NCBI GenBank assembly: GCA_965208885.1
Contig: CBDBPS010000002.1
Span: forward strand, 1,879,538-1,943,537
Origin: Dehalococcoidia bacterium
Lineage (GTDB): Bacteria; Chloroflexota; Dehalococcoidia; UBA2979
Reading direction: 5' to 3'
Length of the DNA: 64,000 nt
Shown: one piece after another, positions 6 to 36,601 of the stretch
Layout: each line of letters starts with the position of its first letter
Position numbering within the stretch: position 1 is the first letter of the stretch
Notes under the pieces: generated by a model
What the model was told of the DNA's origin: nothing
The model's input: the letters and a program-made list of their open reading frames with translations, nothing else
Database searches by the model: none
Position numbers and translations under genes: made by a program

Positions 6-3000
6 ATGGACGAGGACACGTACGTCTACATCGAAGCCCTGACCTTCGGAAGCGCCCTGGCGCTCACCCCGGCGATCCTCGACAGCATGGGGACCGAGGT
101 CTCCATGCATATCGTCTCCCAATCCACTTACAGCGGGCACGGCCGTTCGTATATCAGCTTCTCTGTCTGGGGGAAGCTCGAGGCGGGCACGTACCACCTG
201 CGCGTCAGCTCTTCCGGGGGCCCCACCGGGATGTACCTGCTGGATCCCGTCGCGTCGCCCTACAACCAGGTTGTCGAGGACTGCACCGCCATCACCACGA
301 CCCAGAGCGACCCCCTGTACGGGTGCCAGTGGCACCTCAACAACACTGGCCAGTTCGGCGCCGGCGCCGGGCAGGACATCAATGTCGAGAGCGTCTGGGC
401 GGGCGGGAACAAGGGCGAGGGCATCAACATCGCCCTCCTCGAAGACAGCCTGCAGACCGACCACGAAGACCTCGTCGACAACGTGCTCACCGCCCGCAAC
501 CGTGACCTGATCGGGCAGGGGAACGTCTATCACCCCCTCGAGTTCCACGGCACGGCGATAGCGGGCCTCATTGCCGCCCGCGACAACGACATCGGCGTCC
601 GCGGAGTGGCGCCGCGCGCGAAGATCTTCATCTACGACATCACCCGCGGGAACTTGACCAACTCCACCAGGGCGATTGCCGGCACCTACCACGCGGAGGA
701 CGCGCCGCACACCGCCATCTCGAACAACAGCTGGGGACCCTCTTCCCTCGGCATACCGCGCGACGTGGAACCGGAGTGGGAGGAGGCCACCAGGAACGGC
801 GTGACACTCGGCTACGGGGGCAAGGGCATCCTCTACGTCTGGTCGGGGGGCAACGGCCACCTGAGGGGCGACCACTCCAACCTCGCCGAACGCGTCAACT
901 ACTACACCGGCACCACCGTCTGCGCCGTCGGGTACGACGACCTGCGGGCCGAATACTCCGAGATGGGCGCGAACCTCTGGCTCTGCGCCCCCGCGCAGAG
1001 CGGCAGGGGCGACCACCCGTGGATCACGACGACCCACATCCCCGACCGCTACCGGACCGACTTCGGCAGCACCTCCGGCGCGGCGGCCATCGTCTCGGGT
1101 GTCGCCGCCCTCGTGCGCGCCGCCAACACAGACCTGACGTGGCGCGACGTCAAGCTGATCCTGGCGGCGTCGGCCCGCAAGAACGACGCCACCAACACCG
1201 GCTGGGAGCAGGGCGCACTCGAGTACGGTTCGACGACCACCCGCTACGACTTCAACCACGAGTACGGCTTCGGCATGGTCGATGCCGCTGCCGCAGTCGC
1301 CCTCGCCGACGGCTGGAGCAACGTCCCCGCCATGCGCACGAGCCAGGCGAGCTCTGGCCAGCTCGGGGATGTCAACTTCCGCGGCATCTTCCTTCCCGAT
1401 GTTGATGGCGGTACCACGACGACGATCAGCAACACGCTCAGCCTGGACAGCTACGTGTCGTTCATCGAGTTCGTCGAGATCGAGATCGAGTTCCGCCACG
1501 ACCGGTTCCGCGACCTGCAGATCGAGCTCGTGTCCCCGAGCGGGAAGGTCTCCGAGCTGTCGGTTCCATCGTCGTCCTTCAGCGGGCAGGCTCACTTTTA
1601 TGACTCCCATCGCTTCGGTTCGGCGAAGCACCTCGGCGAAAGCGCGGAGGGAACATGGACCCTGAGGCTCACAGACGAACGGTTCACCAGGAGCGGGCGG
1701 CTCATGTCATGGGGGCTGAAGGTCTACGGCCATGGCTACAAGCCGGGCCGAGTCAGCATCACGAGCGCGACGGCCGGAGCCGGCCTCGCCGCCCTGGCCT
1801 GGGACGCGCCCGCCGATATAGGGGGCTCGGCCATCACCTCTTACGACCTTCGCTACCGGAAGCGTGGGTCCGACTGGACCACGGTCACGAACGTCGGAAC
1901 CCTCGACGACCGCACGCACACGCTTACCGGGCTGGACGGCTCGGTGGGAGGGGTGTCGGTGTGGTACGAACTCCAGGTCCGGGCCGTCAACGATGCCGGT
2001 TCCGGTCGCTGGTCGAGCTCCTCCAACGTCGCGCCGTGGAGAGTCGCGCCCGATGCTCCCCGGTCCGTCTCGACCGCCGCCCGCAACCAGGCGCTCGCGG
2101 TGTCCTGGCAGACGCCGAACTACTGGGGGGCGCAGCCCCTCGTGGCCTACCACATCCGCTACATCGAAGCGGACGCCATGGACAAGTCCGACAGTGAGTG
2201 GACGCCCGTCAGCCGCGCCTGGCAGACCGGGGGCGGCGAGCTCCGCCACGTCATCCGAGGGCTCACCAACGGCACCGCTTACGAGGTGCAGGTCCAGGCC
2301 GAGAACATCCGCACGACGGGTGGCTGGTCCAGCGTCGCAACAGGCACGCCAGCGAACATCAACGGCCCGGCCGAGTTCGCCGGCACCCGGACGACTCGCA
2401 GCATCCCCGAGAACACCGCCGCCGGCGCGGACATCGGCGACCCCGTCGCCGCCCGCGACGACGAGGGCGACACCCTGACGTACTCGCTCAGGAGAGGCAC
2501 CAACATCCTCGAGATCAACAGCGCCACCGGCCAGCTCCAGACGAAGTTCGCGTTCAATCACGAGCTGGCATCCAGGTACTTCGCCACCGTTGCCGTGCAC
2601 GACGGCAAGGCCAGCGACGCCACCGGGAGCACCGCCATCGACGACACGATCGACGTGACGATCGAGATCGAGGATGTGGACGAGCCACCCGTGGTCACGG
2701 GCAGTGAGACGCGCAGGGTCCGGGAGAACACGACGGCCGTCGCTACCTACAGCGCCAGCGACCCCGAGGAGGCGACGACCACCTTCACCTGGTCACTCGC
2801 TGGAGACGACTCCGACGACTTCGCGATCAGCAGCAGCGGCGTGCTGACCTTCGATCCCGCCCCGAACTTCGAGGTGCCGACCGACACCGGCGGCGACAAC
2901 ACCTACAGCGTCACGGTCCGGGCGACTGACGACAGCGCGACCGACCCCGACGCCATGACCGGCGAGTTCGAGGTCGAGGTCACCGTCCTGCCCGTCGACG

Positions 3001-6000
3001 AGCCGCCGGAGATCCGCGGCGACACCAGCTACACGATCGCGGAGAACAGCGCGAGACGCGTCGGCAGCTACACGGCCACGGACCCCGAGGGGGCGAGCAC
3101 CACCTGGCTGAGCCTGACGGGGACGGATGCGCGGCACTTCGTCCTCGACGAGTTCGGGACGTTGAGCTTCGCCGAGACGCCGGACTTCGACCGCTCGACC
3201 AACGACGACCACGGCCCCGAGTACCGAGTCACCCTGCGGGCCTCGGACGGGCGCACGGGGACGGCCGGGATCGGCACCTTGCCCGTCACGATCACCCTCA
3301 CGTCCGTCGCCGAGGGTCCGCTGATCGAGGGCGACACGGTCATCGACGTCAACGAGGGCCACACGGGCACGCTCGACATGTACACGAAGACCGACCCGGA
3401 GGGCTCCGCTACGAACTGGGGCGCGGTCGGCAGCACGACCGCGCTGAGCGGCGCCAACGCGGACGCCTTCGACTTCAACCAGTCGACCGGGGGGCTGACA
3501 TTCAAGAGCCCGCCCGACTTCGAGGACGGCGGGGGCTCCTACCAGGTCACGATCAACGCCAACGACGGCGTGCTGAACGGCCGCCTCGACGTCACTGTCA
3601 ACGTCGCCAACCACGATGAACGCGCCGACCAGCCGGTACAGCTCGGCGCGCAGCGCGGCGTCATCAACGTCCCGCTCACGGCGACGCTGACGGACCCCGA
3701 CAACGTGGTCAGCGCGACGTGGCAGTGGCAGCGGTCGACGAGCCGCACGGGCGGCTGGAGCGACATCGCGGGCGCTACCTCGAGCAGCACCTCGTCGAGC
3801 AGCCATACCCCGACCGCCGCCGACCGCGACCAGTACCTGCGCGCGACCGTGTCCTACGAGGACGGCCACGGCCCGGGCAAGAGCGCGGACGCCGTCACGG
3901 AGTTCACGACCGTGAACGAGCGCCTCTCGAACACCGCCCCCGTGCTGCCCGACAGCGTCGACGACATCGTGATCCCCGAGGACACCCCGGAGCGCCGCAA
4001 CGTCGGCAGCCCGATCCTGGCGACCGACGATGAGGGGGACGACCCCGTGTACACGCTGAGTGGCGCGAGCGAGTTCGAGATTGGCCGCACGACGGGCCAG
4101 ATCCAGGTCGCCGGCGGCGCCACGTTCGACTACGACCAGGGCCAGCGCAGCTACGCGCTCACCGTTACCGCCGACGACGGCTTCGGCGGCACCGACACCG
4201 TCGCCGTCACTGTCAACATCGAGGACGTGAACGAGGCGCCGGTCGCCGCCAACGACGCCCGTAGCGTCGCCGAGGACGAGTCGATCACCATCGACGTGCT
4301 CGCCAACGACAGCGACCCCGAGAACGACACCCTGTCACTGGTGAGCGCGCTGCCGCGCAGTCCGCGCTGGGGGACGGCGACCGTCGACACCTCGACCAAC
4401 CACATCAGCTACACGCCGAGGGCGAACTATCACGGCGCAGACAGCTTCATCTACCGTGCCCAGGATGACGGCAGCCCTCGCCTCTCGAGCACTGCCATCG
4501 TCTCGATCACCGTCAATGCCGTAAACGACGCCCCCGAGTTCGCCTCGGCGATGGTGGAGCGCAGCATCGCCGAGAGCGCCGAGGAAGGTGACAGCGTCGG
4601 CGCGCCCGTGACCGCGACGGACATCGACACCGGCGACACCCTCACCTACCGGCTCGCGGGCGTCGACGCCTCCTCGTTCGACATCGACGGCGCCGGCCAG
4701 ATCACCGTCGGCGCCGGGGTCAGCTTCGAGATCGCGACCAAGGACACGTACGAGGTGACGGTCACCGTCGACGACGGTAGCGGGGAGTCGAACGCCACGG
4801 CGAGCGTCGCCGTGACCATCACCGTCAGGGCCGGGCCGGTTGGGCCACTCATCATCGGGGGCGGTGGAGGCGGGCCGTCGGGGCCGACTCCGAGCGAGGT
4901 CGACTTCGAGTGGACCGTCGAGCAAGACATTGAGGAACTGGACAGCAGCCACGAGAAGCCCGGCGGCTCCTGGTCCGACGGCGTCACGCTGTGGCTGCTC
5001 GACAACCCCGACGGCGCGGGCGACGCCGTCTACGCATACGACCTCGCGACCGGCGAACGCGTCGAGGACCGTGAGTTCGACCTCGACGATACGAACCGCG
5101 CCCCGCGCGGCGTCTGGTCCGACGGCAAGACCTTCTTCTGGGTCTCGGACAGCGGCCAGGACAGGCTCTTCGCCCACGACATCACGACGGGGGACGGCAC
5201 GCCCGAGCGCGACATCGAGCTGGACCGCCGCAACGCCGACGCGCGCGGCATCTGGTCGGATGGCGCGACGATGTGGGTGCTCGACGGCGGCAAGGACGCG
5301 CTCTTCCTCTACGACCTCGAGAGCGGCGCGCTGCTGGGGGAGTGCGCGCTCGACCAGGCCAACGACGACCCGCGCGGCGTCTGGTCGGACGGCGTCACGG
5401 TCTGGGTCTCCAACCACGACCCCAAGCGCCTCTTCGCCTACCGCCTGCCAACCCGCGAGGACCTCGCCGCGGCGGCCGAGGACAAGGCGCTCGAGCGTGT
5501 CCGTGACGAGGAGTTCGGGGAGCTGAGCGCGGCAGGTAACAACAGCCCGCGCGGCCTCTGGTCCGACGGCGACGTCATGTACGTCGCCGATGAGAACGAC
5601 CGCAAGGTCTACAGCTACAACATGCCGGATGCGATCGACGCGCGGCTGGCTTCGCTGGAGCTCAGCGGAGTCGACTTCGGAGTGTTCTCACCGCTGCGCT
5701 ACGACTACGCCAGCGAGACGATCCCCCACGGCAACATCGCAACCCTGACTGCCGTGCCGGCGCAGGCGGGCGCGACGGTGCAAGTCGAGCCCCCGGACCA
5801 CGACGGAGACCCTGAGAACGGGCACCACCTGCGGCTGCTCCCCGGACTCGAGATCACCATCACGGTGACCTCAGAGGACCGCAGCCGCGAGCGCGTCTAC
5901 CGCCTGCTCCTCGGCGACGAGGAGCCCACCGGGGATGAGGATGCGGCCGAACCCGTCCCGAGCTGCCTGCGCGGCGCCGTCGCCGTTGGCTTCAGCCTCC

Positions 6001-6488
6001 TCGTCTTCGAGGGCGGAAGCCTCGAGGACCTCGTGAGCTGCGCGCAGCTCCGCCACGTCACCGCGCTCTACGCGCTGAGCGACGCCGAGTACGTCGCCTA
6101 CATCCTCGGGGCGCCCGAGTTCGTGAACGAACGTTTCGGCGAGCTCTACGCGGGTGGCGTTCCGGCACTCACTCCGTTGACGGTCAAGAGCGACGGTCCC
6201 GCGACGGCCGACCCGGGTGCTCCCGTGGTCACGGGGCCGTGGCCCGAGTGCCTCAGAGGCGAGATCGTCGAGGGCTTCAGCCTCGTGCTCTACGAGGGTG
6301 GCAGCATCGACGATCTTGCCGCGTGCGCCGAGGGCCTCGGGGTCGGAGCACTCTATATCCTCGATGACGGTATCTGGGTCTCGTACATCCTCGGAGCGCC
6401 GGAGTTCGTCAACCAGTCCTTCCGCGAGCTGTTCCCGGGCGGCGTCCCGACGGCCGCGCCGCTGACCGTGCAAGTCGACGGGCCGTAG
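6..6488 (+). CDS. Giant secreted/surface multidomain protein; the 5' end probably lies upstream of the window. It has a subtilisin/kexin-like S8 domain, a P-domain, FN3, cadherin-like repeats and the conserved C-terminal module.
   Basis: 2160-aa ORF. His motif HGTAIAGLIAARDN and Ser motif GTSGAAAIVSGVAAL of S8 are present, as is the oxyanion SNNSWG. The furin-like DDG catalytic-Asp motif reads LLEDS here. The P-domain reads FRDLQIELVSPSGKVSEL. FN3 repeats read SAITSYDLRY. Cadherin repeats read DVDEPP. The C-terminus matches the other three giant genes. Confidence 0.85.
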   Translation: MDEDTYVYIEALTFGSALALTPAILDSMGTEVSMHIVSQSTYSGHGRSYISFSVWGKLEAGTYHLRVSSSGGPTGMYLLDPVASPYNQVVEDCTAITTTQSDPLYGCQWHLNNTGQFGAGAGQDINVESVWAGGNKGEGINIALLEDSLQTDHEDLVDNVLTARNRDLIGQGNVYHPLEFHGTAIAGLIAARDNDIGVRGVAPRAKIFIYDITRGNLTNSTRAIAGTYHAEDAPHTAISNNSWGPSSLGIPRDVEPEWEEATRNGVTLGYGGKGILYVWSGGNGHLRGDHSNLAERVNYYTGTTVCAVGYDDLRAEYSEMGANLWLCAPAQSGRGDHPWITTTHIPDRYRTDFGSTSGAAAIVSGVAALVRAANTDLTWRDVKLILAASARKNDATNTGWEQGALEYGSTTTRYDFNHEYGFGMVDAAAAVALADGWSNVPAMRTSQASSGQLGDVNFRGIFLPDVDGGTTTTISNTLSLDSYVSFIEFVEIEIEFRHDRFRDLQIELVSPSGKVSELSVPSSSFSGQAHFYDSHRFGSAKHLGESAEGTWTLRLTDERFTRSGRLMSWGLKVYGHGYKPGRVSITSATAGAGLAALAWDAPADIGGSAITSYDLRYRKRGSDWTTVTNVGTLDDRTHTLTGLDGSVGGVSVWYELQVRAVNDAGSGRWSSSSNVAPWRVAPDAPRSVSTAARNQALAVSWQTPNYWGAQPLVAYHIRYIEADAMDKSDSEWTPVSRAWQTGGGELRHVIRGLTNGTAYEVQVQAENIRTTGGWSSVATGTPANINGPAEFAGTRTTRSIPENTAAGADIGDPVAARDDEGDTLTYSLRRGTNILEINSATGQLQTKFAFNHELASRYFATVAVHDGKASDATGSTAIDDTIDVTIEIEDVDEPPVVTGSETRRVRENTTAVATYSASDPEEATTTFTWSLAGDDSDDFAISSSGVLTFDPAPNFEVPTDTGGDNTYSVTVRATDDSATDPDAMTGEFEVEVTVLPVDEPPEIRGDTSYTIAENSARRVGSYTATDPEGASTTWLSLTGTDARHFVLDEFGTLSFAETPDFDRSTNDDHGPEYRVTLRASDGRTGTAGIGTLPVTITLTSVAEGPLIEGDTVIDVNEGHTGTLDMYTKTDPEGSATNWGAVGSTTALSGANADAFDFNQSTGGLTFKSPPDFEDGGGSYQVTINANDGVLNGRLDVTVNVANHDERADQPVQLGAQRGVINVPLTATLTDPDNVVSATWQWQRSTSRTGGWSDIAGATSSSTSSSSHTPTAADRDQYLRATVSYEDGHGPGKSADAVTEFTTVNERLSNTAPVLPDSVDDIVIPEDTPERRNVGSPILATDDEGDDPVYTLSGASEFEIGRTTGQIQVAGGATFDYDQGQRSYALTVTADDGFGGTDTVAVTVNIEDVNEAPVAANDARSVAEDESITIDVLANDSDPENDTLSLVSALPRSPRWGTATVDTSTNHISYTPRANYHGADSFIYRAQDDGSPRLSSTAIVSITVNAVNDAPEFASAMVERSIAESAEEGDSVGAPVTATDIDTGDTLTYRLAGVDASSFDIDGAGQITVGAGVSFEIATKDTYEVTVTVDDGSGESNATASVAVTITVRAGPVGPLIIGGGGGGPSGPTPSEVDFEWTVEQDIEELDSSHEKPGGSWSDGVTLWLLDNPDGAGDAVYAYDLATGERVEDREFDLDDTNRAPRGVWSDGKTFFWVSDSGQDRLFAHDITTGDGTPERDIELDRRNADARGIWSDGATMWVLDGGKDALFLYDLESGALLGECALDQANDDPRGVWSDGVTVWVSNHDPKRLFAYRLPTREDLAAAAEDKALERVRDEEFGELSAAGNNSPRGLWSDGDVMYVADENDRKVYSYNMPDAIDARLASLELSGVDFGVFSPLRYDYASETIPHGNIATLTAVPAQAGATVQVEPPDHDGDPENGHHLRLLPGLEITITVTSEDRSRERVYRLLLGDEEPTGDEDAAEPVPSCLRGAVAVGFSLLVFEGGSLEDLVSCAQLRHVTALYALSDAEYVAYILGAPEFVNERFGELYAGGVPALTPLTVKSDGPATADPGAPVVTGPWPECLRGEIVEGFSLVLYEGGSIDDLAACAEGLGVGALYILDDGIWVSYILGAPEFVNQSFRELFPGGVPTAAPLTVQVDGP
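4850..6488 (+). repeat. Copy 1 of 4 of the conserved ~1.65-kb 3' cassette, encoding the shared C-terminal module (Gly-rich linker, WSDG blades, cadherin-like sandwich, 2x CLRG domain).
   Basis: The cassette starts at GGGGGGPSGPTPSEVDFEW. Blades have the form RGVWSDG.T.WV.D...LFAYDL. It ends in two CLRG...GFSL.LYEGGS.DDL..CA...ALY....G..VSYILGAPEFVN units. It is near-identical at the DNA level to copies at 7083-8712 (rc), 25930-27602 and 33375-35021. Confidence 0.8.
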
Positions 6489-6787
6489 GCGCCAGGCGCG
6501 GACCGGGGGCGCTGCATATGCTGGCCGCCGGACGACCGAAGAGGCTGCCGACGTGGCCTCGTCGACAATCACTTGAGCATCATGAGGTGACGGGCGACCC
6601 CCTTCCACATCACGCCAGTGGCGTGATCACCGCGAGTGGTACCCACGCGATCACCGTTGGTGCGCCCCGGCTGCTGCGCATTACGTGCGATTCCAACGTC
6701 ATTCGGCAGGAACACTACCTTCCATAAAGTGTGCGCCGGCTCTTCAGTGAAGCACGATAAGCCGCCACGGGTCCCTAACCTGAACAG

Positions 6788-7096
6788 GTGAGGGAAGCGC
6801 CCGGCGTGGCGCCCATTCGGCCGGCTCGAAGTGACAACGGCGCGCTCGTTGGGGGATGGGAAGGGACCGTGCGGACACTCGTCGCTACCACCGACATCGC
6901 CGGCGCCACCGCTCCTACCGTGCGCCCCGAACACATGGAGCGCATCGAGGCGGCCGCGGCAGAGGTCCTCAGCGCCAACACGCGCCGGGCCTACGCGAGC
7001 GCGTGGCGCGCGTGGGTGGCGTGGTGCGCGGCCGACGGCGGCAGGCGCGAGGACGGGCAGGAGGCCTGCCGGGCGCGGGCGCTCAGTCGCCCTTGA
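6788..7096 (+). pseudogene. Tyrosine recombinase/integrase N-terminal (core-binding SAM-like) fragment. It is truncated where the 3' end of the convergent giant gene begins.
   Basis: LSANTRRAYASAWRAWVAWCAADG resembles the CB-domain motif of XerC/phage integrases. No catalytic domain follows. The ORF runs into the stop region of the 7083-14696 gene. Confidence 0.5.
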
Positions 7097-8712
7097 TGAC
7101 GAGCGGCGTCGCAGCGGCGAGGCCGTCCGGGAACAGTGCGCTGAAGCCGCGGTTGACGAACTCCGGTGCGCCGAGGATGTAGGACACGTACTCGCCGCCG
7201 ACAAGCGCGTAGAGTGCCGTGACGCCGGTCTCCCCCGCACACGCCGCGAGGTCCTGGACGCTGCCGCCGGCGTAGAGCACGAGGCTGAAGCCCGCTGCGA
7301 TCTCGCCGCGCAGGCACGCCGGCCACGCTTCGACGTCAACGGCGCCGCCGGCGGCCGGGGTGGGCGGCCCCTCGCTGCGGGCGGTCAGCGCGGTGAGCAC
7401 GGGCACACCCGCGGTGAACAGCCTGCTGAAGGTGCGGTTCACGAACTCCGGTGCGCCGAGGATGTAAGAGACGAACTCCCCCTCGTGCAGGGCATACAGC
7501 GCCGTGACGTGGCGGCCCTCGGCGCAGGCCACGAGGTCCTCGATGCTGCCGCCTTCGTAGACGACGAGGTTGAAGCCGACGCTGACGGCGCCGCGCAGGC
7601 AGCTCGCCGACGGTCCGGTCACCTGCTCCTCGGCGACGTCCGCCAGCGCCACCCGGTAGACGCGCTCGCGGCTGCCGTCCGGCGAGGTCACGGTGATGGT
7701 GACCTCGAGGCTCGGGAGAAGCCGCACGTGGTGCCCGTTCTCAGGGTCTCCGTCGTGGTCCGGGGGCTCGATCTTCACCGTCGCGCCCTCCTGCGCCGGC
7801 ACGGCAGTCAGGGTCGCGATGTTGCCATGGGGGATCGTCTCGCTGGCGTAGTCGTAGCGCAGTTGTGAGAACTCCCCGAACTCCACGCCGCTGAGGCTCA
7901 GCGAGGCGAGCCGCGTGTCGATCGCGTCGGGCATGTTGTAGGTGTAGACGCGGCCATCGCTCTCGTCGGCGACGTACATCACCGCGCCGTCGGACCAGAG
8001 CCCGCGCGGGCTGTTGTTGCCGGCGCTGCTCAGCTCGGCGAACTCCTCGTCCCGCACCCGCTCGAGTGCGGGCGGCTCCTCGGGAGGCTCGCCTTCGGGC
8101 GGCACGGGCAGCCGGTAGGCGAAGAGGCGCTTGGCGGTGTGGTCGGAGACCCAGACTGTGACGCCGTCCGACCAGAGGCCGTGCGGGCCGCTGTTCGCGT
8201 CCGCGAGCTCATACTCGCCCAGCAGCGCGCCGCTGGTGATGTCATAGACGAAGAGGGAGGGATTCGCGTTGAGCACCCAGACCGTTTCGCCGTCGGACCA
8301 GATAGCGCGCGCGTCGCGGTTCCCGTTGGCGAGCACGATCTCGCGCTCCTCGTCGCGCTCGCCCGTCTCGAGGTCGTAGGCGAAGAGGCGGTCTTGCCCG
8401 CTGTCGGCGACCCAGGCGGTCTCGCCGTTCGACCAGACGCCGCGCGGGGCGCGGTTCGTATCGTCGAGCTCGAACTCGCGGTCCTCGACACGTTCGCCGG
8501 TCGCGAGGTCATAAGCGTAGACGGCGTCGTCAGCGCCGCTGCCGTTCTGGGTGAGCCAGAGCAATGCGCCGTCCGACCACATCCCGGTGGGCGTGTCGTT
8601 GGCCGCGGCGAGCGCGTCGATGTCGCGAGTCACGTTCCACTCGAAGTCGACCGTGCTCGGAGTCGGCCCGGAAGGTCCGCCGCCACCACCGCCGAAGCTG
8701 ACGATGGTTGAG
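7083..8712 (-). repeat. Copy 2 of 4 of the conserved 3' cassette (C-terminal module).
   Basis: SFGGGGGGPSGPTPSTVDFEWNV followed by WSDG blades, a cadherin-like domain and tandem CLRG domains. Confidence 0.8.
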
Positions 8713-11700
8713 GGCTGGACGACGCGCGCGCTCACGGTAATCGTGACGGTGACGGTGGCCTGCGCGCCGGCCCGATCGATGGCGGTGATGGTCACTATGT
8801 GGTCGCTCCCAACCTCGAGCCCTGCGCTCGCGGCGACGGTGATCTGGGCCGTGTGGGGCTCGACCTCAAAGAAGCTGGAGCCGGAGAGCCGGTACGTCAG
8901 GACATCGCCCAGGAGGACGTCGCCCACGTCGACATCGGTGGCGGTCACCGGGGTGCCGACTGGCGTGCCTTCGGGGGCATGTTCGCTAACGCTCAGGGCA
9001 ATGTCGGACGCGGCGAACTCCGGCGGGTCGTTGACGGGGTTCACGGTCACGAAGACATCGGCGCTATCCGAGTGCGGCCCGGCGAAGACACGGTAGGTGA
9101 AACGGTCGACACCGTGGGTGTCGGCTGTCGGCTCATACGAGACCCGGTTGTCGGCAGTCACGGTCACGGAGCCGCTCTCCGGGTGGTTCGTGATTGAGAT
9201 CGTGAGCGGCGCGCCCTCCGGGTCGCGGTCGTTACCCAGGACATCGATGAGAGTGGGCCTGTCCTCTTGCGTTCTGGCAGTGTCGTCCTCCGCCATGGGC
9301 GGTTCGTCCACGTCGTCGATGGTAATGGTGACGAACGCGCTGTCGCTGGCGTTGGAGGAATCTGAGGCGGTGACAGTGACGAAGTAGGTGTCGCGGCCCT
9401 CGCGGTTGAGCATGGTTCCCACACCCACGCGGATCTGGCCGCTGTCGCCGTCGACGGCAAAGCTGCCGGCGTCGGCGCCCGAGAGCGTGTAGCTGGGCAC
9501 ATCGCCCGGGTCGGGGTCGGTCGCCTCCACGACCGCACCGACGGGGGTGCCGGCCGCCGAGTTCTCTGCCACCGAGCGGTCCTCGGTGGCGTTGGGGAAC
9601 GCAGGCGGGTTGTTGATGACGGGCGCAGCCTGGGTCCGGTTCATCGAGGCCACCTGCTTGTCCTTGCCGGAGCCGTGACCATCGGTGTAGTCGACCGTCA
9701 CGCGCAGGTAGTGGTTGAGGTCGGCGTCGAGAGGCGTATAGCGGCTGCCCGTGGCGCCCCCGATGGTGCTCCAGTTGCTGCGGTTCTGCGACCGCTCCCA
9801 CGTCCAGGACTGGCCGGAAATGTTCCCGTCAAGGTCGGCCAGCGTCGCCGTCAGTTCGGCGTCTACCTGCGGCTGCTGCGAGGAGAGGCTGAGCGTACCG
9901 GGCTCGTCGACGTTGGTGACATTGACGGTCACGTCGTGCTCCACGGTGTTGACGACGTCTCGGGCTTCGACGATGACTTCGTACGTGTTGTTCAGACTGG
10001 CGTCGGCGGGATCCTCGTAGTTGGGCGTGGAGTTGAAGCGGAGCACACCGTTGCTGAAGTTGAAGTCGCCGCTGTCGGGCCCGATCAGCCGCAGTGCGAC
10101 CGTGCCGCCCTCGGGATCGGTCGCGCTATAGGTGGCGATCGAGCCCGTAGCGTTCTCGTCGAAGTCCATGCTGTCAGGGCCCGTGACCTCCGGCGGCTCG
10201 TCCACGTCGGTGACCGCGACGGTCACGTCGAGCTTGCTGGGCAGGCCCCCGCTCTCCCTGTCCGAGGTGTTCACCGTGACCTGGTAGCGGTTGTCCCTGT
10301 TGCTGTCCGCCGGGATGTCTGCGTCCGGTGGGCTCTTGAAGCGCAGTTCCCTCGTGCATGGGTCCGTCCCATCGGTGAGTTCGAATTTGCTCGCGTCCGG
10401 CCCCGACAGGGCCCTCCAGGTGACCGCCTCTCCCTCCGGGTCGGTGGCTGTGTAGCAACCGAGGGAGACGTCGCTGTTCTCCGCGATGGTGACGTGGGCG
10501 AGGCCCGTGAGTAGCGGGGCCTCATCCACGTTCGTGACCTGGATCGTCACGGGGAGCTCGCTCTTGTTGACCCCATCACTGGCGGCGACCTCGAGGTGGT
10601 AGAGGCTGTCTTCGTTCGCATCGAGTGGCCGGTCGTGATCGGGAGGCAGGCGGAAGCTGAGTTCGCCGGAGGCATTGATCCGCAGCGCGTCCTTGTCTTC
10701 GTCGGCGCCCTCGACGGACCACGTAAGGGCGAGGCCTTCCGGATCGGTGGCCGTGTACGTCTCCAGCACGCCGGTGCTGTTCTCCGGCCGGGTGATGTGG
10801 GTGACGCCGTCGACGGTGAAGCCTTCGTTGACGTCGACAACGGTCACGGTGACCACGATGTCGTCGTCGATGGCGTCGTCGTTGTCGCCGTGCACATCAC
10901 GGCCGTCGCTGACGTTCACCGTGAGGGTGTGACTGGTCTGTTCCTCGTAGTCGAGGAGCCTGGTCAACTGCAGCCCGCCGGTCCGGCTGTCCAGGCTGAA
11001 GTAGTCGCTGGGAGCGCTCAGGGAGTAGGTCAAGAGGTTGCCATCGGGGTCCGTGGCCTCTACCGCGTCACCGGCCGCGCTATCCAGGGTCGTATCCTCG
11101 GACAGGCTGCGAGCGCCTGTCTCGCTCTCCGGGAATTTCGGGTCGGTATTCTGCAGATTGGGGGTTCCCGATACGGTCGCCGACCACGGGCTGTCGCCGG
11201 CGCTGTTGGTTGCGAGCACCTGCACGTCGTAGCCGATGCCGTTCTCCAGGCTGAGGATGTTGTACCGGTGCAGCCCGTCGCCGAGCGCCACGCCGGGGGT
11301 GGATGTGGCGCTCCAGTTGGCGTCGACGGCCTTCTCATCGACGGTGGCGTCGCTGCGAATGTGGCGCACCTGGTAGCCGCTGATGTCTGCGCCGCCGGTG
11401 AAGCCCGGTTCGCGCCACACAACCCCGAGCTCCTGGTGGCGGGGCGCGACCAGGGTGATGGCGGGCGCCGCCGACACTACCACCGCCGTGCCCTTGCTCT
11501 CGCTCGGCGACCAGGGCCCCGCGCCGGCGTCGTTGACCGCGCGGATACGCAGGTCGTACCAGGTACCGGCTGACAGGCCGGAGAGCTCGTAGCTCAGAGC
11601 GCCGCCGTCCGTCTCCCAGATGCCGGTCACTTCGGTCCAGTTGGTATCTGACTTGTCCGAGGCGGTGCTGGCGATGTAGCTCAGGTCGTAGCTCGTGATT

Positions 11701-17045: not shown

Positions 17046-17249
17046 CGCCCAGACATTCTGACTGGAAAACCGCCGTCGGTTCCGGCTCTCTTGCTTCGCC
17101 GACTGGAATGGTCTGGGGACGATCAGAATGGCGCACGCGTGGCCCTCCCGTGTGTTCCGACCGACTGCAACGCCTGCCCCGGCAACGATGCGAGGCCAGA
17201 CCGTCCGTCGCCCCGGCGGGCCTGGCTGCTCCAGGCCGGGGGGCTCACG

Positions 17250-28031: not shown

Positions 28032-28687
28032 TCGCTGATCGCTACGCCAGCGTCGCGAGGGCCGCCGGAAAACCGCCGCCCGCGCATCCCCGCACGTTGA
28101 CCCCGAGTTGGATCAGCGCCTGCTGGTCTCGCACGGGATCAAGGCGGAGATGGTGCTCGGCGAGGTAGCGGCGATTCTCCAGCGGGCGGCCCCCATCGAT
28201 AGGTCGCAAAGCACCATCGGCAGGGGATTCTCTTGCCTACGAGCCGGCGGCGAGGAGAGAGACCGCTCCACCACGCCGGGTCGCGGCGCCGCGAACGCCA
28301 TCGCCGGCCGCGCCGCGACCTCGGGCGACGCGGTCTCCGCAAACGGTCCGCGCGCCTCGGGGACGATGTTCCGACGAGGTGGCGGGCGGGACCGCCGCGC
28401 GCTCGCCGTCGATGCTGACGCCCAGCCTCGCCCAGTCCTCGGGCCCCAGGGCGTCGACGAACTCGGCTACGAAGCGCGGGAGGTGGTCCCGGTATCAGCT
28501 CGTCAAGACCGGGCGGCAGCATCCGGGTCTGGTCACGGCTCAGCGGGCGCAGCGGCATCGGAGACTCCGCGGTTCTCCCCCGCCCCCTCAAAACTTCTAC
28601 CTCAAGCCGTTTTTCTGAGACAGGCTCATCTGGCGACTCACACACGCGATCACGACAGCGAACGTACAGAATCACCCCGCTCTATAG

Positions 28688-28790
28688 TTACAATCACATC
28701 TCTCCCGAGGTTCGTTTCGAAGCATTGATAACGTTGCAGACGCGGTACATTACAACCTTTCAAGTCCTGTAGTGAGTCAATAGTCTTTTC
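28688..28790 (+). promoter_or_regulatory. Conserved upstream element (copy 2), about 320 nt 5' of the 29109-35021 giant gene.
   Basis: Aligns with 16931-17045 (see that feature). Confidence 0.45.
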
Positions 28791-29108
28791 GTGGTCAGTC
28801 CGGTCGGCAACCCCCCCGGCTGTAAAGGTGGCGCGCGCGTGGCCGTTCAGGACCTCGCCGTCGTACGCGGACGCGATTCACTCGTGCACTCGCGGACGCA
28901 TCTCATTAACCACGTGCGCGACGACGTCAGGCGCGGGCCGCCGCGCTGCCGTTGTCGACTTCGCCGCATGCGGGGAACGAGAGCGCTCCGAGTCTGTCTG
29001 AGATAGATGCGCGTTCGACTCCTGCCATGAACCCCGGTCCGTGCCGACGGGAATAGGACAGGTTAGGTGAGCCCATCAACACGCGTTTCTGGAGGCGTCC
29101 GTCGGCGG

Positions 29109-32100
29109 ATGGCTCCCCTCGGCGCGGCGCTGCTCCTCATCGCGGCGGGTCTCACACCGGCTCCCGGCGCCTTCGCGCAGACCACCGCCGCCCCAGTGAT
29201 CACGAGTGAGGGCCCCTTCACCGTCGACGAAGGCGAGACCGCCATCGCCACCCTCACGGCGACCGATGCGGACACGGCTCCCGGCGATCTGACCTGGTCG
29301 AGGACCGGCGGCGCCGACAGCGACAAGTTCTCGCTGACTGCCGCCGGCGTCCTCACCTTCGCCGCCGCCGGGGACTACGAGGACCCCGACGACGCCGACG
29401 GCGACCGCTCCTACGAAGTCACCGTGCAGGTCTCGGACCGCGACAACACAGACACCGCGAACCTCGTCGTCATCCTTGCGAACGTAACGGAGCTCATCAC
29501 CACAATTGCGGGACCCACGACCGTCTCCTTCGCCGAGAACGGTGCTGGACGCGTGGCCACATTCACCGCCTCGACGGATGAGGACCGCGACGGCATCGAG
29601 TGGATCCTCGCCGGGACGGATCGCGAACACTTCACGATCGACAGTCCGGCGGGTGCGCTCCGCTTCCACATCGACCCGGTCTCGCCGAACATCTTCCCGA
29701 AGCTCCCGGACTTCGAGGACCCCAACGACGGCGGAACAGACAACGTCTACTCCATTACGCTGCTGGCCCGCGTTGGCTCCGCCATCAGTTCGTCGCACGC
29801 GGTCACGGTCACGGTGACCGATGAGGACGAGGGCGGCTCGCTGTCTTTCTCCTCGAAGCGTCCGCGCCAGGGCGTCGAGCTGACGGCGACGCTGAGCGAC
29901 CCGGACGGCGTCAGCGCCGGCACGGTCACGTGGCAGTGGGAGCGCTCGACGGGCCGCGACTCCTGGGCGGTTGTCGCCGGGGCAGCTTCCGGCAGCTACA
30001 CGCCGGTGGCCGCCGACACGAACGCCTTCCTGCGCGTCACCGCGACGTACGACGACGAGCACGGGGAGGACCATGGGGTTGCGGGGACGCCGCCCAACGT
30101 GGTGCTGGGACCGCTGCTGACGTCGGTGACGGTCACGACGAACAACGCGGCTAGCAACACCGCGCACGCCCTCCGGCCCACGTTTGACGCCGAGGTTCTG
30201 CACTACGGCATTGGCTGCGATGAAAGCGACACGATGGCGCTGACCCTGAGCGCACCTTCAGGGAGCCGTCTGGCCGTGGACGGGGAGCAGGTCGCACCGG
30301 GGACAGATGTTGAGTTGGGAGTGACCGAGACCACGAGCGTGCAGGTCACCCTCTCGGGCGGGGACGGCGCCGAGACCACCTATGTCATCCACTGCATGCC
30401 GCAGCAATTCTTCGAGTGGCAGATTATCAAACACGCGGGGACCTCCGGCGTCCTGGAGGATCTCATCGCGTTCGGGCACCCGGGGTACATCTCCTTCACG
30501 GACAACAATGGCGTTCCCAGGTACCTCACCCCGACTCTGGATGACCTCCGCCCGCCACGATTCTTCAAGATCGGCGTGTTCAGGGTCGGTGGGGACGGGG
30601 CGTTCCGGTACGCCTATCGCCGGCCAACGGAGACGCGCTCCAGCGCCTTCACCGTCCTGGACGCACAATTCAAGACCCATGCCGAGGGGATCCAGACCAG
30701 GCCGCCGCTCACACACACCGACAGCCACGACTTCCGCGTACTGGAGAACGGCGACTACCTGCTGCTCGCCTATAACAGCGCCATAAGGTATCTCGGCCAC
30801 CTCACGTTCCTCGACCCGATGAGAGACCCATCCGTCAAGGTGTATGACTCGGCGATTCAGATCGTGACGCCCCGGGGGCAGGCGAAATTCACCTGGAACT
30901 CATGGGATCACATGGCGATCGAGGACTGCGTGCAGCACCGCTTCCCGATACAGCATCCCGACACATCCTCGCGCAACCTGGAGCACCCCGGATATGCCCA
31001 CGTGAACTCGGCACAGGCTGTCGACGATCTCATCGTGGCCTCGTTCCGCGGCTGCTCGAAGGTTCTCGGCATTGATGTCACAACGGGGGAGGTGGCCTGG
31101 CGGATTGGCCTCAGCAATCTGAGCGAGGACGACTGGGCGGGACGCGACATCGGGCCGGCTCCGATGGGTATCGTCAATGACCCCGAGGGGCAATTCTGCG
31201 GCCAGCATGCAGCCCAAATTCTCCCGAACGGTCACCTCCTGCTCTACGACAACGGCACCCGTTGCGTCATGAATCCGTGGACGAACGAGCCGCTTGGAAG
31301 GGACTTCGACACCTTCAGCCGTGCCGTCGAGTACGCCCTGGATCACGAAAACAACGAGGTGGTGTTCGTGCGCGACCACTCGCTGCGGGGGGAGAGGAGC
31401 GCCTTCGCGTGGTCCAGCGGCGATGTGGAGGTCCTCGATAACGGCGACTGGCTGGTCAGTTGGGGGCGTACCCGCAGCACCGATCCGTTGCTTACCGACA
31501 ACGAAACGGTTACGCAAGTCGACCCGGCCACGGGTGTGGAGAAGTTCGCCATCAGGTTTGTCACCGCCGACAGCGCGAATGCCCCCCGCATCATTGCCTC
31601 CGCGGTCCCCCCCGAGGCGCTGGCCCCGCAGCCTGGTTCCCTCACGGCGCACCTTCCCGCAAGCTCCCACTCCTCGGTCTTCCACGGCGGCGCCACCGAC
31701 TCGCCGCAGGTGGTCGTCGCCTTCAGCCGCCCGGTCGTGGACTTCGACGAGACCTCGCCATCGTTCAACGTAACGGGGGCCACGGTTGCGAGCGTCAGCG
31801 CCCATGTCGTCGCGGGCGAGCCCTCCAACGCCTACCTCGTGACACTCACCCCGGACGGCGATGGCGCGATCAGCTTCAGCCTCGTCGCCGGCCATGCCTG
31901 CGCCGCCGGAGGGATCTGCACCGCCGACGGCGCAACGCTGTCCGCAGCGCCGGCGACATTCACCATCGGGCCGGCTCCCAGCGTCGCCTTCGAGGAGGCC
32001 GCGTACAGCGTCGGCGAGGGTTCCGCACGGAGCGTCGCGCTGCGCCTGAGCGCCGCGCACCGAGGCGCGCGCGGCGTGACCGTCCCCGTGCTGCTGCACA

Positions 32101-35021
32101 CGACCGGCACCGCTTCGGACAGCGACCTGATGGGCGGCGGGAGCGTCACGTTCGAGGCAGGCGAGACGCGCAAGACTATCACGGTAGAGGCGCTGCACGA
32201 CGACCTCATCGAAGGCAACGAGACCGCCATGCTTGCGTTCGGGGATTTGCCGGACGGCCTCACCGCGAGTGCGACCGCCACGGCCACCGTGACGGTGACC
32301 GACACGGACCGGGCGCAGATCGACTTCCGCGTCGGGGTGTCGCAGGTCTCCGAGGGGGGCGAGACCCGGCTCACCTTCACGATCACCAACGGCGTCACCT
32401 TCGAGCGGGACCAGCCCATCGACCTGACCATCGGCGGGACGGCCACGCCGGGAGACGACTTCACGCTCGTCGATGCCGCGAGCAACAACCTGTCCGCGCC
32501 CTATGCTCTCACCTTCCCGGCCGGGGCGAGCGCCATCGGCATGACGTTCCGCGCGGTCGATGACACGGACATCGAACCTGCAGCCGAAACGGTCATCATG
32601 AGCGCCCGGCTGGCACTTACCAACACCCTTCTGGGTACGCGCACGGTCGCGATTCCACCGAGCGACGTGCCCGACATCCCGGGCGTCGCGATGTTCGTCG
32701 GTGGCGGGAGCATGGTCACCGAGGGAGAGGACGCACCCTTCATCCTACTGCGCACCACGGCGACGAACCTGCCGGTCTCGGAGCCGCTGACAGTGTCCGT
32801 GGAGGTCACTGCGACGGGCTCGACGCTCAGCGGTGCGACGCCCACCAGTGCGACATTCGACGCGAACAGCTATCTCGCAACCGTGTGGCTCACCACCCTC
32901 GACGACCAGATCGTGGAACCGCCGGGGAGCGTAACCGTCCTCGTGCTCGGCAGCACCAGCAACCCGCCCGTGTACCTCACCGGCGCCAACAACGCATTCA
33001 CCCTGGCCGTTAGCGACAACGACGTGGCGGCGTTCACGGTGTCGGCGAGCGCCGAGGAGGTGGCCGAGGGCGCCACGGTCACGGTCACCATTGCGGCCGA
33101 TGGCGTCACCTTCGCCGAGCCCCAGGCGATCACGCTGATGCTCGGCGGGACGGCGACGCCTGGGGAGGACTTCAGCATCTGGAGTGGCGCCGCGGAGCTG
33201 TCGGACCCGTACACGGTCAAGCTGCCCGCGGGGGCGAGGTCGGCGCTCGTCAGCATCCGCACGAAGCCCGACGGCGAAGACGACCAGGGTGAGACGGTCG
33301 AACTCACAGCCAGCCACGATGGGAACGCCATCGGCGCTGTCACGGTCACGATCACCGCCCCCGCGCCGCCGCCCGTCGTCCTGGGCAGCTTCGGAGGTGG
33401 CGGCGGCCCCTCCGGCCCGACGCCCAGCGATGTTGAGTTCGAGTGGAACGTCGAGCGCGACATCGAGGAGCTGGACAGCGGTCACAACGCCCCGACTGGC
33501 GCCTGGTCCGACGGCGTGCGGGTCTGGCTGTTGCAGAACGGCAGCGGCGCCGACGACGCCGTCTACGCCTACGACCTCACGACTGGCGAACGTGTCGAGG
33601 ACCGCGAGTTCGAGCTCGACGATACGAACCGCGCCCCGCGCGGCGTCTGGTCGAACGGCGAGACGGTGTGGGTCTCCGACAGCGGCCAGAACCGCCTCTT
33701 CGCCTACGACCTCGAGAGCGGTGAACGCGTTCCCGAACTCGACCTGGTACTCGCTGCACGCAACCGCGACGCGCGCGGCATCTGGTCCGATGGCAAGACG
33801 ATGTGGGTGCTCGACGGCGGGAAGGACAGCCTCTTCGCCTACGACCTCGCCGGCGGCGACCTCATCGCCGAGTACGCCCTGGACGGCGCCAACAGCGACC
33901 CTCATGGCCTCTGGTCCGACGGTGTCAGCGTTTGGATCTCCGACCACACCGCCAAGCGCCTCTTCGCCTACAGTGTGCCGTCGCTGCCTGAGTCAGAGCC
34001 TCCCAAGGAGCCGCCCGCCCTCGAGCGCGTCGTCGCCGAGGAGTTCGAGGAGCCGGGCCGCGTCGGCAACAACAGCCCTCGAGGCATCTGGTCGGACGGC
34101 GAGGTCATGTATGTCGTCGACGCGCTCGACGGCCGCGTCTACACGTACAACATGCCCGATGCCATCGAAGTGCGCCTCGCCTCGCTCGCGCTCTCAGGCG
34201 TCGACATCGGCGAGTTCGACCCCGGCGTGAGGGAGTACGACGGCTCGGCGGACACAGGCGTGAGCGAGACGACGATCGAGGCGGAGGCGATGCAGCGCCT
34301 CGCCGACATCGACATCGACCCGCCCGATGCCGACGAGGGGGCGGATGGCCACCAGGTCACGCTCGAGGGCGTCGCCGAGATCACCGTGACCGTGACCTCG
34401 GCGGACGGCGCGCGGAAGCGAGAGTACCGCGTGCGGCTCGGCCAGGAGGAAGCGACCGGGACCGCCGCGGAGTGCCTGCGGGGCGCCGTGGCGGTGGGCT
34501 TCAGCATCCTCGTCTACCAGGGGGGGAGCGTCGGCGACCTGCTCGGCTGCGCGGAGAGCCGCCACGTCAGGGCCCTGTACGCCCTGCACGAGGGCGAGTA
34601 CCTCTCCCACATCCTCGGGGCGCCAGACTTCGTGAACGCCGCCTTCGGGGAGCTGTACCGCGACGGTGTTCCCGCGCTCACCGCGCTGGTCGCCCGCAGC
34701 GTCGGGCCGGCCACGCCGGACCCGGCCGCCGGCGGCGGCGCTGACGGCACAGCGTGGCCGGTCTGCCTGCGCGGCGAGATCGTCGAGGGCTTCAGCCTCG
34801 CGCTGTACGAGGGCGGCAGCGTCGACGCACTCGCAGCCTGTGCGCAGAGCCTGGGCGTCACGGCCGTCTACACCCTGGCCGATGGCGAGTACGTCTCCTA
34901 CATCCTCGGAGCCCCGGAGTTCGTGAACGCGGGCTTCGCCGAGCTGTTCGCCGGTGGTGTTCCGCCCATCACTCCATTGGTCGCCAGAAGCGAAACGCCT
35001 CCCGCGGGTGGACTACGATGA
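29109..35021 (+). CDS. Giant secreted protein with cadherin-like repeats, a possible arylsulfotransferase (ASST)-like beta-propeller, several Calx-beta domains and the conserved C-terminal module.
   Basis: The ATG at 29109 is preceded by GGAGG. The signal peptide reads MAPLGAALLLIAAGLTPAPGAFAQT. A cadherin repeat reads DVTELITT...DEDEG. The propeller region at ~30390-31560 carries ILPNGHLLLYDNGT, VLENGDYLLLAYNS and VLDNGDWLVSWG motifs. Calx-beta units read VAFEEAAYSVGEGSARSVAL...VTVTDTD. The C-terminal module begins SFGGGGGPSGPTPSDVEFEW. Confidence 0.85.
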   Translation: MAPLGAALLLIAAGLTPAPGAFAQTTAAPVITSEGPFTVDEGETAIATLTATDADTAPGDLTWSRTGGADSDKFSLTAAGVLTFAAAGDYEDPDDADGDRSYEVTVQVSDRDNTDTANLVVILANVTELITTIAGPTTVSFAENGAGRVATFTASTDEDRDGIEWILAGTDREHFTIDSPAGALRFHIDPVSPNIFPKLPDFEDPNDGGTDNVYSITLLARVGSAISSSHAVTVTVTDEDEGGSLSFSSKRPRQGVELTATLSDPDGVSAGTVTWQWERSTGRDSWAVVAGAASGSYTPVAADTNAFLRVTATYDDEHGEDHGVAGTPPNVVLGPLLTSVTVTTNNAASNTAHALRPTFDAEVLHYGIGCDESDTMALTLSAPSGSRLAVDGEQVAPGTDVELGVTETTSVQVTLSGGDGAETTYVIHCMPQQFFEWQIIKHAGTSGVLEDLIAFGHPGYISFTDNNGVPRYLTPTLDDLRPPRFFKIGVFRVGGDGAFRYAYRRPTETRSSAFTVLDAQFKTHAEGIQTRPPLTHTDSHDFRVLENGDYLLLAYNSAIRYLGHLTFLDPMRDPSVKVYDSAIQIVTPRGQAKFTWNSWDHMAIEDCVQHRFPIQHPDTSSRNLEHPGYAHVNSAQAVDDLIVASFRGCSKVLGIDVTTGEVAWRIGLSNLSEDDWAGRDIGPAPMGIVNDPEGQFCGQHAAQILPNGHLLLYDNGTRCVMNPWTNEPLGRDFDTFSRAVEYALDHENNEVVFVRDHSLRGERSAFAWSSGDVEVLDNGDWLVSWGRTRSTDPLLTDNETVTQVDPATGVEKFAIRFVTADSANAPRIIASAVPPEALAPQPGSLTAHLPASSHSSVFHGGATDSPQVVVAFSRPVVDFDETSPSFNVTGATVASVSAHVVAGEPSNAYLVTLTPDGDGAISFSLVAGHACAAGGICTADGATLSAAPATFTIGPAPSVAFEEAAYSVGEGSARSVALRLSAAHRGARGVTVPVLLHTTGTASDSDLMGGGSVTFEAGETRKTITVEALHDDLIEGNETAMLAFGDLPDGLTASATATATVTVTDTDRAQIDFRVGVSQVSEGGETRLTFTITNGVTFERDQPIDLTIGGTATPGDDFTLVDAASNNLSAPYALTFPAGASAIGMTFRAVDDTDIEPAAETVIMSARLALTNTLLGTRTVAIPPSDVPDIPGVAMFVGGGSMVTEGEDAPFILLRTTATNLPVSEPLTVSVEVTATGSTLSGATPTSATFDANSYLATVWLTTLDDQIVEPPGSVTVLVLGSTSNPPVYLTGANNAFTLAVSDNDVAAFTVSASAEEVAEGATVTVTIAADGVTFAEPQAITLMLGGTATPGEDFSIWSGAAELSDPYTVKLPAGARSALVSIRTKPDGEDDQGETVELTASHDGNAIGAVTVTITAPAPPPVVLGSFGGGGGPSGPTPSDVEFEWNVERDIEELDSGHNAPTGAWSDGVRVWLLQNGSGADDAVYAYDLTTGERVEDREFELDDTNRAPRGVWSNGETVWVSDSGQNRLFAYDLESGERVPELDLVLAARNRDARGIWSDGKTMWVLDGGKDSLFAYDLAGGDLIAEYALDGANSDPHGLWSDGVSVWISDHTAKRLFAYSVPSLPESEPPKEPPALERVVAEEFEEPGRVGNNSPRGIWSDGEVMYVVDALDGRVYTYNMPDAIEVRLASLALSGVDIGEFDPGVREYDGSADTGVSETTIEAEAMQRLADIDIDPPDADEGADGHQVTLEGVAEITVTVTSADGARKREYRVRLGQEEATGTAAECLRGAVAVGFSILVYQGGSVGDLLGCAESRHVRALYALHEGEYLSHILGAPDFVNAAFGELYRDGVPALTALVARSVGPATPDPAAGGGADGTAWPVCLRGEIVEGFSLALYEGGSVDALAACAQSLGVTAVYTLADGEYVSYILGAPEFVNAGFAELFAGGVPPITPLVARSETPPAGGLR
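30390..31560 (+). other. Possible ASST-like (arylsulfate sulfotransferase family) beta-propeller domain.
   Basis: Repeated L.NG.LL/LL.YDNG-type strands and overall spacing recall ASST-family propellers. This is an eyeball assignment only. Confidence 0.3.
33375..35021 (+). repeat. Copy 4 of 4 of the conserved 3' cassette (C-terminal module).
   Basis: GSFGGGGGPSGPTPSDVEFEWNVERDIEELD followed by blades, a cadherin-like domain and 2x CLRG. Confidence 0.8.
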
Positions 35022-36500: not shown

Positions 36501-36522
36501 TCACCACTGCACGAACATCGGT

Positions 36523-36582: not shown

Positions 36583-36601
36583 TGCCCGGCTGGCCTCTCC
36601 T

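Follow-up and report, generated by a model that had tools for sequence, protein, structure and literature searches.

The principle of one constant terminal module carried by many different heads is already well known in bacteria. In the Cwp family of Clostridioides difficile, a monoderm with an S-layer, Sec-secreted paralogues combine a variable region with tandem CWB2 domains (PF04122), alpha/beta domains of ~80-90 amino acids (aa) that hold the protein non-covalently on the envelope. Diverse large exoenzymes of S-layer monoderms, and S-layer proteins themselves, are anchored to the wall by SLH domains (PF00395), which form a constant block of repeats at one end of the protein; in the cellulosomal enzymes, a recombination-prone family, many paralogues with different heads share one small duplicated C-terminal module, the dockerin; and the cargo of the type IX secretion system (T9SS) consists of many unrelated secreted proteins with a common domain of 80-100 aa, the CTD, at the C-terminal end. 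We have analyzed a 64,000-nucleotide (nt) stretch of DNA from a Dehalococcoidia bacterium (Chloroflexota; contig CBDBPS010000002.1, positions 1,879,538 to 1,943,537), referred to here as the window, in which four genes (A to D) encode giant secreted proteins. All four proteins end in a common module of ~540 residues that closes with a tandem pair of two-cysteine CLRG units, each of ~80 aa.

Genes A (6-6488, + strand), B (7083-14696, - strand), C (17091-27602 as the longest open reading frame (ORF), + strand) and D (29109-35021, + strand) encode proteins in which homology starts sharply at a glycine run; upstream of this A to D are unrelated in sequence. The start of the module is marked by a single GGGG(G)PSGP motif, and from there the order of the parts is the same in all, with the Gly-run linker followed by a five-bladed WSDG beta-propeller, a cadherin-like sandwich (PF12733) and the two CLRG units. 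A preliminary description of the window had recognized the same parts in all four proteins, with two cysteines in each of the two CLRG units, but had allowed five to six blades. There are five WS[DN]G blades in each module, one of those in C reading GSDG. The module occupies 4854-6488 in A (+ strand, 544 aa), 7083-8696 in B (- strand, 537 aa), 25929-27602 in C (+ strand, 557 aa) and 33387-35021 in D (+ strand, 544 aa), with the CLRG pair at 5964-6485, 7086-7603 and 27021-27599 in A, B and C, respectively. In D the Gly-run linker is followed by the propeller at ~33477-34154, the cadherin-like sandwich at ~34176-34439, and CLRG units 1 and 2 at ~34473-34706 and ~34764-34997 (all + strand). The PF12733 gathering cut-off of 24.2 bits is passed by D (35.7-39.9 bits) and C (34.5 bits), while A and B score just under it (19.8-23.4 bits) with the same columns aligned. 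The fold of the propeller resembles those of five- and six-bladed binding and enzyme propellers (glutaminyl cyclase (QC), YjiK, NHL and YWTD). To the five-bladed propellers of QC and the YjiK C-domain (3mbr, 3qqz) there is 12-14% identity, a resemblance of fold only, and unlike QC the module has no QC family match in Pfam or NCBIfam. No CLRG copies were found in the 64-kb window beyond the four terminal pairs.

The CLRG unit is well conserved, with a mean column identity of 71% across units from many genomes, and both cysteines are present together in 479 of 486 units. This is the pattern that an extracellular disulfide domain would show if its partner is conserved as well. The predicted fold is beta-alpha-beta-beta-alpha-beta. 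Models of the pair have pTM values of 0.63 and 0.56, with a poorly defined geometry between the domains, and the similarities to solved structures, including a SPOR/ferredoxin-like comparison, are all below significance. Sequence searches of the modules in Pfam, NCBIfam and the PDB returned nothing for the CLRG pair. In Pfam the four modules gave matches at E ≤ 10 only to NCH3, Cadherin-like, PQQ_2, SGL, Vgb_lyase, Phage_RBD_prop and DUF5128, none lying within the pair, and no match to SLH, CWB2, LysM, SPOR, PG_binding or dockerin in any of them; no NCBIfam sorting-signal model matched at E ≤ 1. The signals of sortases, exosortases, rhombosortases and archaeosortases (LPXTG, PEP-CTERM, GlyGly-CTERM, PGF-CTERM) are absent from the four proteins, which lack a C-terminal hydrophobic helix and end in ...PLTVQVDGP, ...PLVIKGD, ...GGRMATASSE and ...PPAGGLR. 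There was no match to the T9SS CTD (TIGR04183 / Por_Secre_tail) in NCBIfam or Pfam, and the fold and the monoderm lineage also disagree with it. No model in the searched copies of Pfam-A and NCBIfam corresponds to the CLRG domain family or to the cassette of propeller, Ig domain and two alpha/beta units, which bears out the earlier view that the pair is no named sorting or anchoring domain. The module was not found described in the literature searched, including work on the adhesins of sponge symbionts.

Set against the described systems, the proteins resemble the CWB2 family in being a secreted family of many paralogues that join a variable region to a constant tandem alpha/beta block. Unlike CWB2, the module has no match to PF04122, contains two units rather than three with a cysteine pair in each, and places the block always at the C-terminus, after the propeller and the Ig domain. 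A constant terminal repeat block on diverse large exoproteins is shared with SLH proteins, but there is no SLH match and SLH is helical, whereas the CLRG unit is predicted to be alpha/beta. Dockerin enzymes are similar in their many paralogues, different heads and small duplicated C-terminal module, but we find neither a dockerin match, nor an EF-hand motif, nor a cohesin-like scaffold nearby. The T9SS CTD likewise stands at the C-terminal end of unrelated secreted proteins, but it is a beta-sandwich of diderm Bacteroidota that is cleaved and replaced by a lipid anchor, in contrast to the duplicated units of a monoderm lineage seen here. The stalks and several heads contain the same cadherin, fn3 and Calx-beta domain types as adhesins of sponge symbionts (PMC8163846), and the lineage is common in sponges; that literature counts repeat domains, and the propeller-Ig-CLRG cassette was not found described in what was searched. 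Compared with Rhs/CDI polymorphic toxins the polarity is reversed, the C-terminus being constant, no conserved immunity-like neighbor was found in the 73 loci clustered, and two orphan copies discussed below look like decayed remnants.

The cassette recurs in a large family of giant Sec-secreted proteins, probably held on the cell surface, that is specific to the Dehalococcoidia and Tepidiformaceae lineages. A profile of the single CLRG unit, scanned against 1.84 billion cluster representatives, matched 837 proteins at E ≤ 0.001 and 168 at E ≤ 1e-30. We examined 148 of the matches, among which 101 have a length of 600 aa or more (median 1727, maximum 5146). Exactly two CLRG units are present in 98 of these 101 large representatives, and in 91 the last unit ends within 25 residues of the C-terminus, so that the refuting condition named in the preliminary description, a module with no preference for the C-terminus among homologues, does not hold. 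The Gly-run linker lies ~360 residues ahead of the first CLRG unit. Full modules are found in at least 83 database representatives, and 67 of the 73 loci studied in other genomes have the module at full length; all four window genes have the full set of family features (Gly run, five blades, cadherin-like domain, two two-Cys units, secretion). The heads and stalks vary. Among 33 members scanned with Pfam we find cadherin in 17, fn3 in 11, Calx-beta in 7, PPDK_N and SWM in 4 each, S8 with a P-domain and LRR in 3 each, and ASST and GSDH in 2 each. The arrangement of a constant C-terminal element on variable heads, proposed from the window, therefore holds across many genomes. Searching GTDB species representatives gave 186 stretches that encode the CLRG pair. 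The best 80 of these are all from uncultured metagenome-assembled genomes (MAGs) labelled Dehalococcoidia, Tepidiformaceae, Dehalococcoidaceae or "Chloroflexi bacterium SB06xx_bin". Chromosome OZ244720.1 alone has at least 18 copies, and several other genomes have 4-7. As read from their names, many of the MAGs are probably from sponges, and the source bacterium of the window is probably sponge-associated too. No CLRG domain was matched in the phage and plasmid collections.

More distant relatives lack the cysteines. P0245 and P0246 (L074 8001-11672), from a JGI metagenome contig and a Logan-assembled contig, respectively, are related to the CLRG domain with an hhalign probability of 99.3%. 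They have five units alternating with stretches that have no Pfam match and look beta-rich by eye, the last unit lying at the very C-terminus; P0246 has an N-terminal Kelch propeller, and P0245 has no Pfam match. The CLRG superfamily is thus wider than its two-Cys form, and a search seeded with the Cys-less relatives found just three more short unnamed proteins.

The possibility of stand-alone silent cassettes was raised by a first homologue search, in which all the proteins recovered were short (141-307 aa) and began at methionines inside the module. The exhaustive profile search, where most relatives are giant, led us to reject this; the list of short proteins arises mostly from a bias of the word-indexed search tool. 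Two loci, L001 and L002, contain only the cadherin-like domain and the CLRG pair when read in all frames, preceded in both by an unrelated repeat protein. L001 has in addition a vestige of the last blade (~9850-9990), with an expanded run of GAC-GAA-TCx (D-E-S) triplets and a frameshift, and its decay falls at a ...VADESD... motif. Genes for conjugation (relaxase and type IV secretion) lie less than 1 kb from the fragment. L002 adjoins an IS21 element. We read both as decayed 3' remnants of recombination or insertion events, which would not constitute a functional store of cassettes.

The four copies in the window had been thought nearly identical, with very high nucleotide identity. This was an overstatement, as in pairwise comparison the modules are 62-77% identical in protein and 70-82% in DNA. 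The similarity is unevenly distributed. A shared sequence quoted in the preliminary description is indeed exact in all four copies, one of them on the minus strand, as a 35-mer at 5085-5119 (+), 8431-8465 (-), 26160-26194 (+) and 33618-33652 (+). No occurrences are expected by chance; it lies in the single best-conserved patch, and it is absent from all 73 loci of other genomes. The pairwise DNA alignment of the 3' cassettes that had been proposed there maps two further tracts. One, between B and C, has 9 mismatches over 342 aligned nt (C 26931-27261, + strand; B 7361-7691, - strand). This 97% identity spans the linker and CLRG unit 1, and identity stays at ~91% through unit 2, compared with ~72-80% over most other B/C stretches. 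A and B share a cadherin-like allele with 7 mismatches in 143 nt (A 5694-5835, + strand; B 7721-7862, - strand). In this domain A/B are 89% and C/D 73% identical at the nucleotide level, against 56-61% between the two types. At the protein level the two types (5619-5858 in A, 7698-7937 in B, 26694-26930 in C, 34152-34388 in D) are 43-48% identical. A database fragment, P0049, opens with the A/B-type motif MDIGEFSPLRYDYASDTIPNGNIAT, which suggests that this allele is also present elsewhere, and would point to old cadherin-like alleles moved around by recombination.

Codon-level identity at identical residues climbs in step with the tracts, and these therefore reflect shared ancestry and not protein-level constraint alone. 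We compared the window copies in segments of 30 codons with 76 full modules from other genomes. In most segments the nucleotide identity within the window equals the mean identity to the external copies, the exceptions being the segment with the 35-mer (0.92 within, 0.81 external) and the B/C tract; concerted evolution of the whole module is rejected by this comparison. The alignments indicate that the copies diverged long ago as paralogues, that purifying selection on them is strong, and that gene conversion has acted locally without homogenizing them wholesale. On a larger scale, tail similarity averages 0.657 within a head class and 0.640 between classes, and the tails nearest to those of the window copies are carried by different heads. 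Head class thus barely predicts tail similarity, from which heads and tails have had largely separate histories, and this supports an exchange of cassettes over evolutionary time. Gene conversion or cassette shuffling had been suggested for the window; the tracts between copies and the uncoupling of heads from tails agree with that suggestion, although homogenization is not general. As a separate observation, the tails of A and B are convergent and form an imperfect inverted repeat of 1.6 kb (76% identity, arms ~600 bp apart, window 4854-8696), a possible substrate for inversion or conversion.

The four ORFs and the nature of the heads had been correctly assigned, and their starts sensibly so. 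By Pfam, A and B have an S8 protease with a P-domain; the head of C is PPDK_N, accompanied by Calx-beta and cadherin, and that of D is ASST, accompanied by Calx-beta. In A the S8 and P-domain head is followed by fn3, cadherin and Big_9 repeats. The 5' end of A is cut by the window edge, residue 24 of A aligning with residue 417 of B; the window lacks ~400 residues of the N-terminus, among them the signal peptide, and probably also a small upstream gene. The longest ORF of B is 7083-14897 (- strand), but the likely true start is the GTG at 14696, from which B (2537 aa; S8 and P-domain, then fn3 and cadherin repeats) is identical to database protein P0159 (2537 aa). Its N-terminus is a classic cleavable signal peptide, MKRLALLSGCLALWGLLSVTGVRAQA, cleaved before VAPG (RAQA/V; AXA-type). 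D, whose longest ORF is 29067-35021 (+ strand) with a likely ATG start at 29109, has cadherin, ASST-like (arylsulfotransferase-like) propeller and Calx-beta domains, and also a cleavable signal peptide, MAPLGAALLLIAAGLTPAPGAFA, cleaved before QT (AFA/Q; AXA-type). The likely start of C is at ~17250. The N-terminus is basic and then hydrophobic, and behind this signal C has three internal propeller and cadherin-like units, Calx-beta, cadherin and fn3 domains and a PPDK_N ATP-grasp before the terminal module, with eight PF12733 domains in total. The three extra WSDG propeller and cadherin-like units (18351-22004, + strand) are 30-33% identical to the terminal module and have no CLRG units. The PPDK_N-type ATP-grasp of C (PEP-utilizing kinase-like; residues 2612-2930, window ~24890-25880) lies behind an N-terminal export signal, an odd position for an ATP-dependent domain that would work outside the cell.

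Our tentatively favored interpretation is that the common tail is a cassette by which Sec-secreted proteins of a monoderm are retained non-covalently on the cell surface. Cultivated members of the Tepidiformales have a monoderm envelope that contains peptidoglycan and an S-layer (PMC10284905), and in a monoderm lineage something must retain a protein exported by Sec. Consistent with retention, B and D have cleavable signal peptides and no copy has a C-terminal transmembrane helix or sorting motif, and in the 73 loci no dedicated machinery is conserved beside the genes. A constant duplicated C-terminal domain with variable N-terminal parts is the same design as in the SLH-, CWB2- and dockerin-bearing families, which also favors retention, and the five-fold tandem repetition in the Cys-less relatives fits a binding domain that acts through avidity and argues against an export tag. 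The protein would be exported by Sec with cleavage of its signal peptide, and the tandem CLRG pair at the extreme C-terminus, presumably stapled by disulfides, would bind non-covalently to some conserved part of its own cell's envelope, either the S-layer or a wall polymer. The variable head would then be held away from the cell by the propeller, the cadherin-like domain and the long stalk of Ig repeats, so displaying a protease, a sulfotransferase-like enzyme, an ATP-grasp, an LRR domain or a cadherin adhesin. With the same 1.6-kb cassette present in every paralogue, homologous recombination from one copy to another could generate the conversion tracts and allow heads and tails to change partners. 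Anchoring, secretion and target binding had all been considered in the preliminary description; the data weigh against a secretion signal and mildly favor an anchor. It is possible, if rather doubtful, that the two-Cys pair represents a previously undescribed class of envelope-anchoring domain of monoderm Chloroflexota, within a plug-and-play cassette reshuffled by recombination into up to ~20 giant surface proteins per sponge-symbiont genome. Some observations weigh against retention. The CLRG pair is acidic (pI 4.0-4.6), unlike many wall-polymer binders. The propeller is conserved as strongly as the pair, which may not be the sole functional end of the protein. The N-terminal signal of C may be an uncleaved membrane anchor, and the sponge-type names of several of the best 80 MAGs make a host-directed function equally natural.

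Given the probable host association and the multivalent propeller units of C, such a function is the main rival, a serious alternative even if we think it somewhat improbable. The tail would be a target-binding tip, comprising a propeller lectin, an Ig domain and the CLRG pair, that binds sponge matrix, host cells or other bacteria, with the heads as effectors. The restriction of the family to Dehalococcoidia, Tepidiformaceae and Chloroflexi MAGs (best 80 of 186 stretches) would suit this, as Tepidiformaceae are prevalent in sponges (PMC10284905), and sponge symbionts are enriched in proteins with cadherin and fn3 domains, which are believed to mediate attachment (PMC8163846). The propeller has a fold used for binding as well as catalysis, C contains the propeller and cadherin-like unit four times, as multivalent binders do, and its N-terminus could provide the membrane anchor. 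Yet the AXA-type signal peptides would leave B and D untethered, the CLRG pair is never internally repeated in the two-Cys clade whereas the propeller unit is, and conservation of the pair is high among symbionts whose hosts presumably differ. We consider it unlikely that the pair is a docking or oligomerization module for a shared scaffold or for other copies, comparable to dockerin-cohesin or GspL/GspM, and not itself a wall binder. The strict number of two units and the many paralogues per genome, recalling the cellulosomal enzymes, are what such a module would lead us to expect, but no candidate scaffold with repeated receptor domains adjoins the genes in the 73 loci, and neither the sub-significant structural similarities nor the loosely defined inter-domain geometry helps the case. 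Marginally less likely still is plain paralogy, in which an adhesin family has grown by duplication and the tail is merely its slowest-evolving part, with no cassette behavior or distinct role. The overall identity of just 62-77% and the similar values within and between genomes in most segments are in accord with this, but it does not account for the sharp B/C tract, the split of cadherin-like alleles into A/B and C/D, the genome-specific 35-mer common to all four copies, the sharp boundary at the Gly run between non-homologous heads and homologous tails, or the near-uncoupling of head class and tail similarity. The reading that we find least probable, and very improbable, is that the pair is a C-terminal export or sorting signal read by unknown machinery and then removed, as is the T9SS CTD. 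Its extreme C-terminal position, the ~80 aa of each unit and the very diverse cargo would be in keeping with this. However, Sec signal peptides are already present and the lineage is monoderm (PMC10284905), no CTD or sorting model is matched, the predicted fold is not a beta-sandwich, five internal copies in distant relatives would be needless for an export tag, and the 73 loci contain no conserved machinery genes nearby.

The cassette bears on the display of proteins on the unusual monoderm envelopes of Chloroflexota, and on the means by which the abundant uncultured Dehalococcoidia of sponges attach to their host or act on it. It marks a repertoire of giant secreted proteases, sulfotransferase-like enzymes and adhesins, at least 18 on one chromosome, and a single 82-column profile is a simple handle for finding them. 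If the CLRG pair is an anchor it would be a new wall- or S-layer-binding domain, usable for surface display; if it binds host material it would be a new adhesin module of symbiosis. The CLRG domain merits a family entry of its own, because the current annotation, in one NCBI record of a relative, names the cadherin-like part only. The interest is moderate in general, and greater for research on the Chloroflexota envelope or sponge symbiosis.

We also examined the genes around the cassette, by clustering all ORFs from the 73 loci, for the co-occurring machinery that the preliminary description had thought worth recording. There is no conserved neighbor fit for a receptor, a sortase-like enzyme or a secretion system, no cohesin-like scaffold with repeated receptor domains and no conserved immunity-like gene; only transposases, a histidine kinase and one small gene recur. 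In the window the small gene lies upstream of B (14693-~15600, - strand), its stop overlapping the GTG of B as GTGA. In the product a lipoprotein-like signal (..AAVGC) is followed by a linker rich in Pro, Ala and Ser and by a conserved C-terminal domain of ~135 aa for which Pfam gives no match. In at least 14 other loci a homologue precedes the S8 domain of a giant gene by ~1.5 kb. The gene is tied to the S8 heads and not to the tail, and we therefore reject it as a partner of the module. It may encode a trans-acting propeptide, inhibitor or chaperone for the S8 heads, a likeness to the I9 propeptide being an impression only.

The remainder of the window contains a defense island (37940-62359), with a DUF6791 and ThiF/E1-like protein (37940-39166), AbiEii with a WYL domain (40903-42111), PDC-M36A (44464-45885), ZacA/B/C (47157-53487), SoFic (56493-57764) and Avs2 (58145-62359). 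Immediately after gene D and before the island, at 35344-37673, are a gene of the serine-recombinase type, in which Recombinase and Zn_ribbon_recom domains but no resolvase domain were detected, and a divergent Peptidase_M78/HTH pair. The orphan fragment of L001 is likewise followed by an M78 gene (10926-11378), with an integrase ~6.5 kb upstream, and the clusters of giant genes may border or travel with mobile elements.

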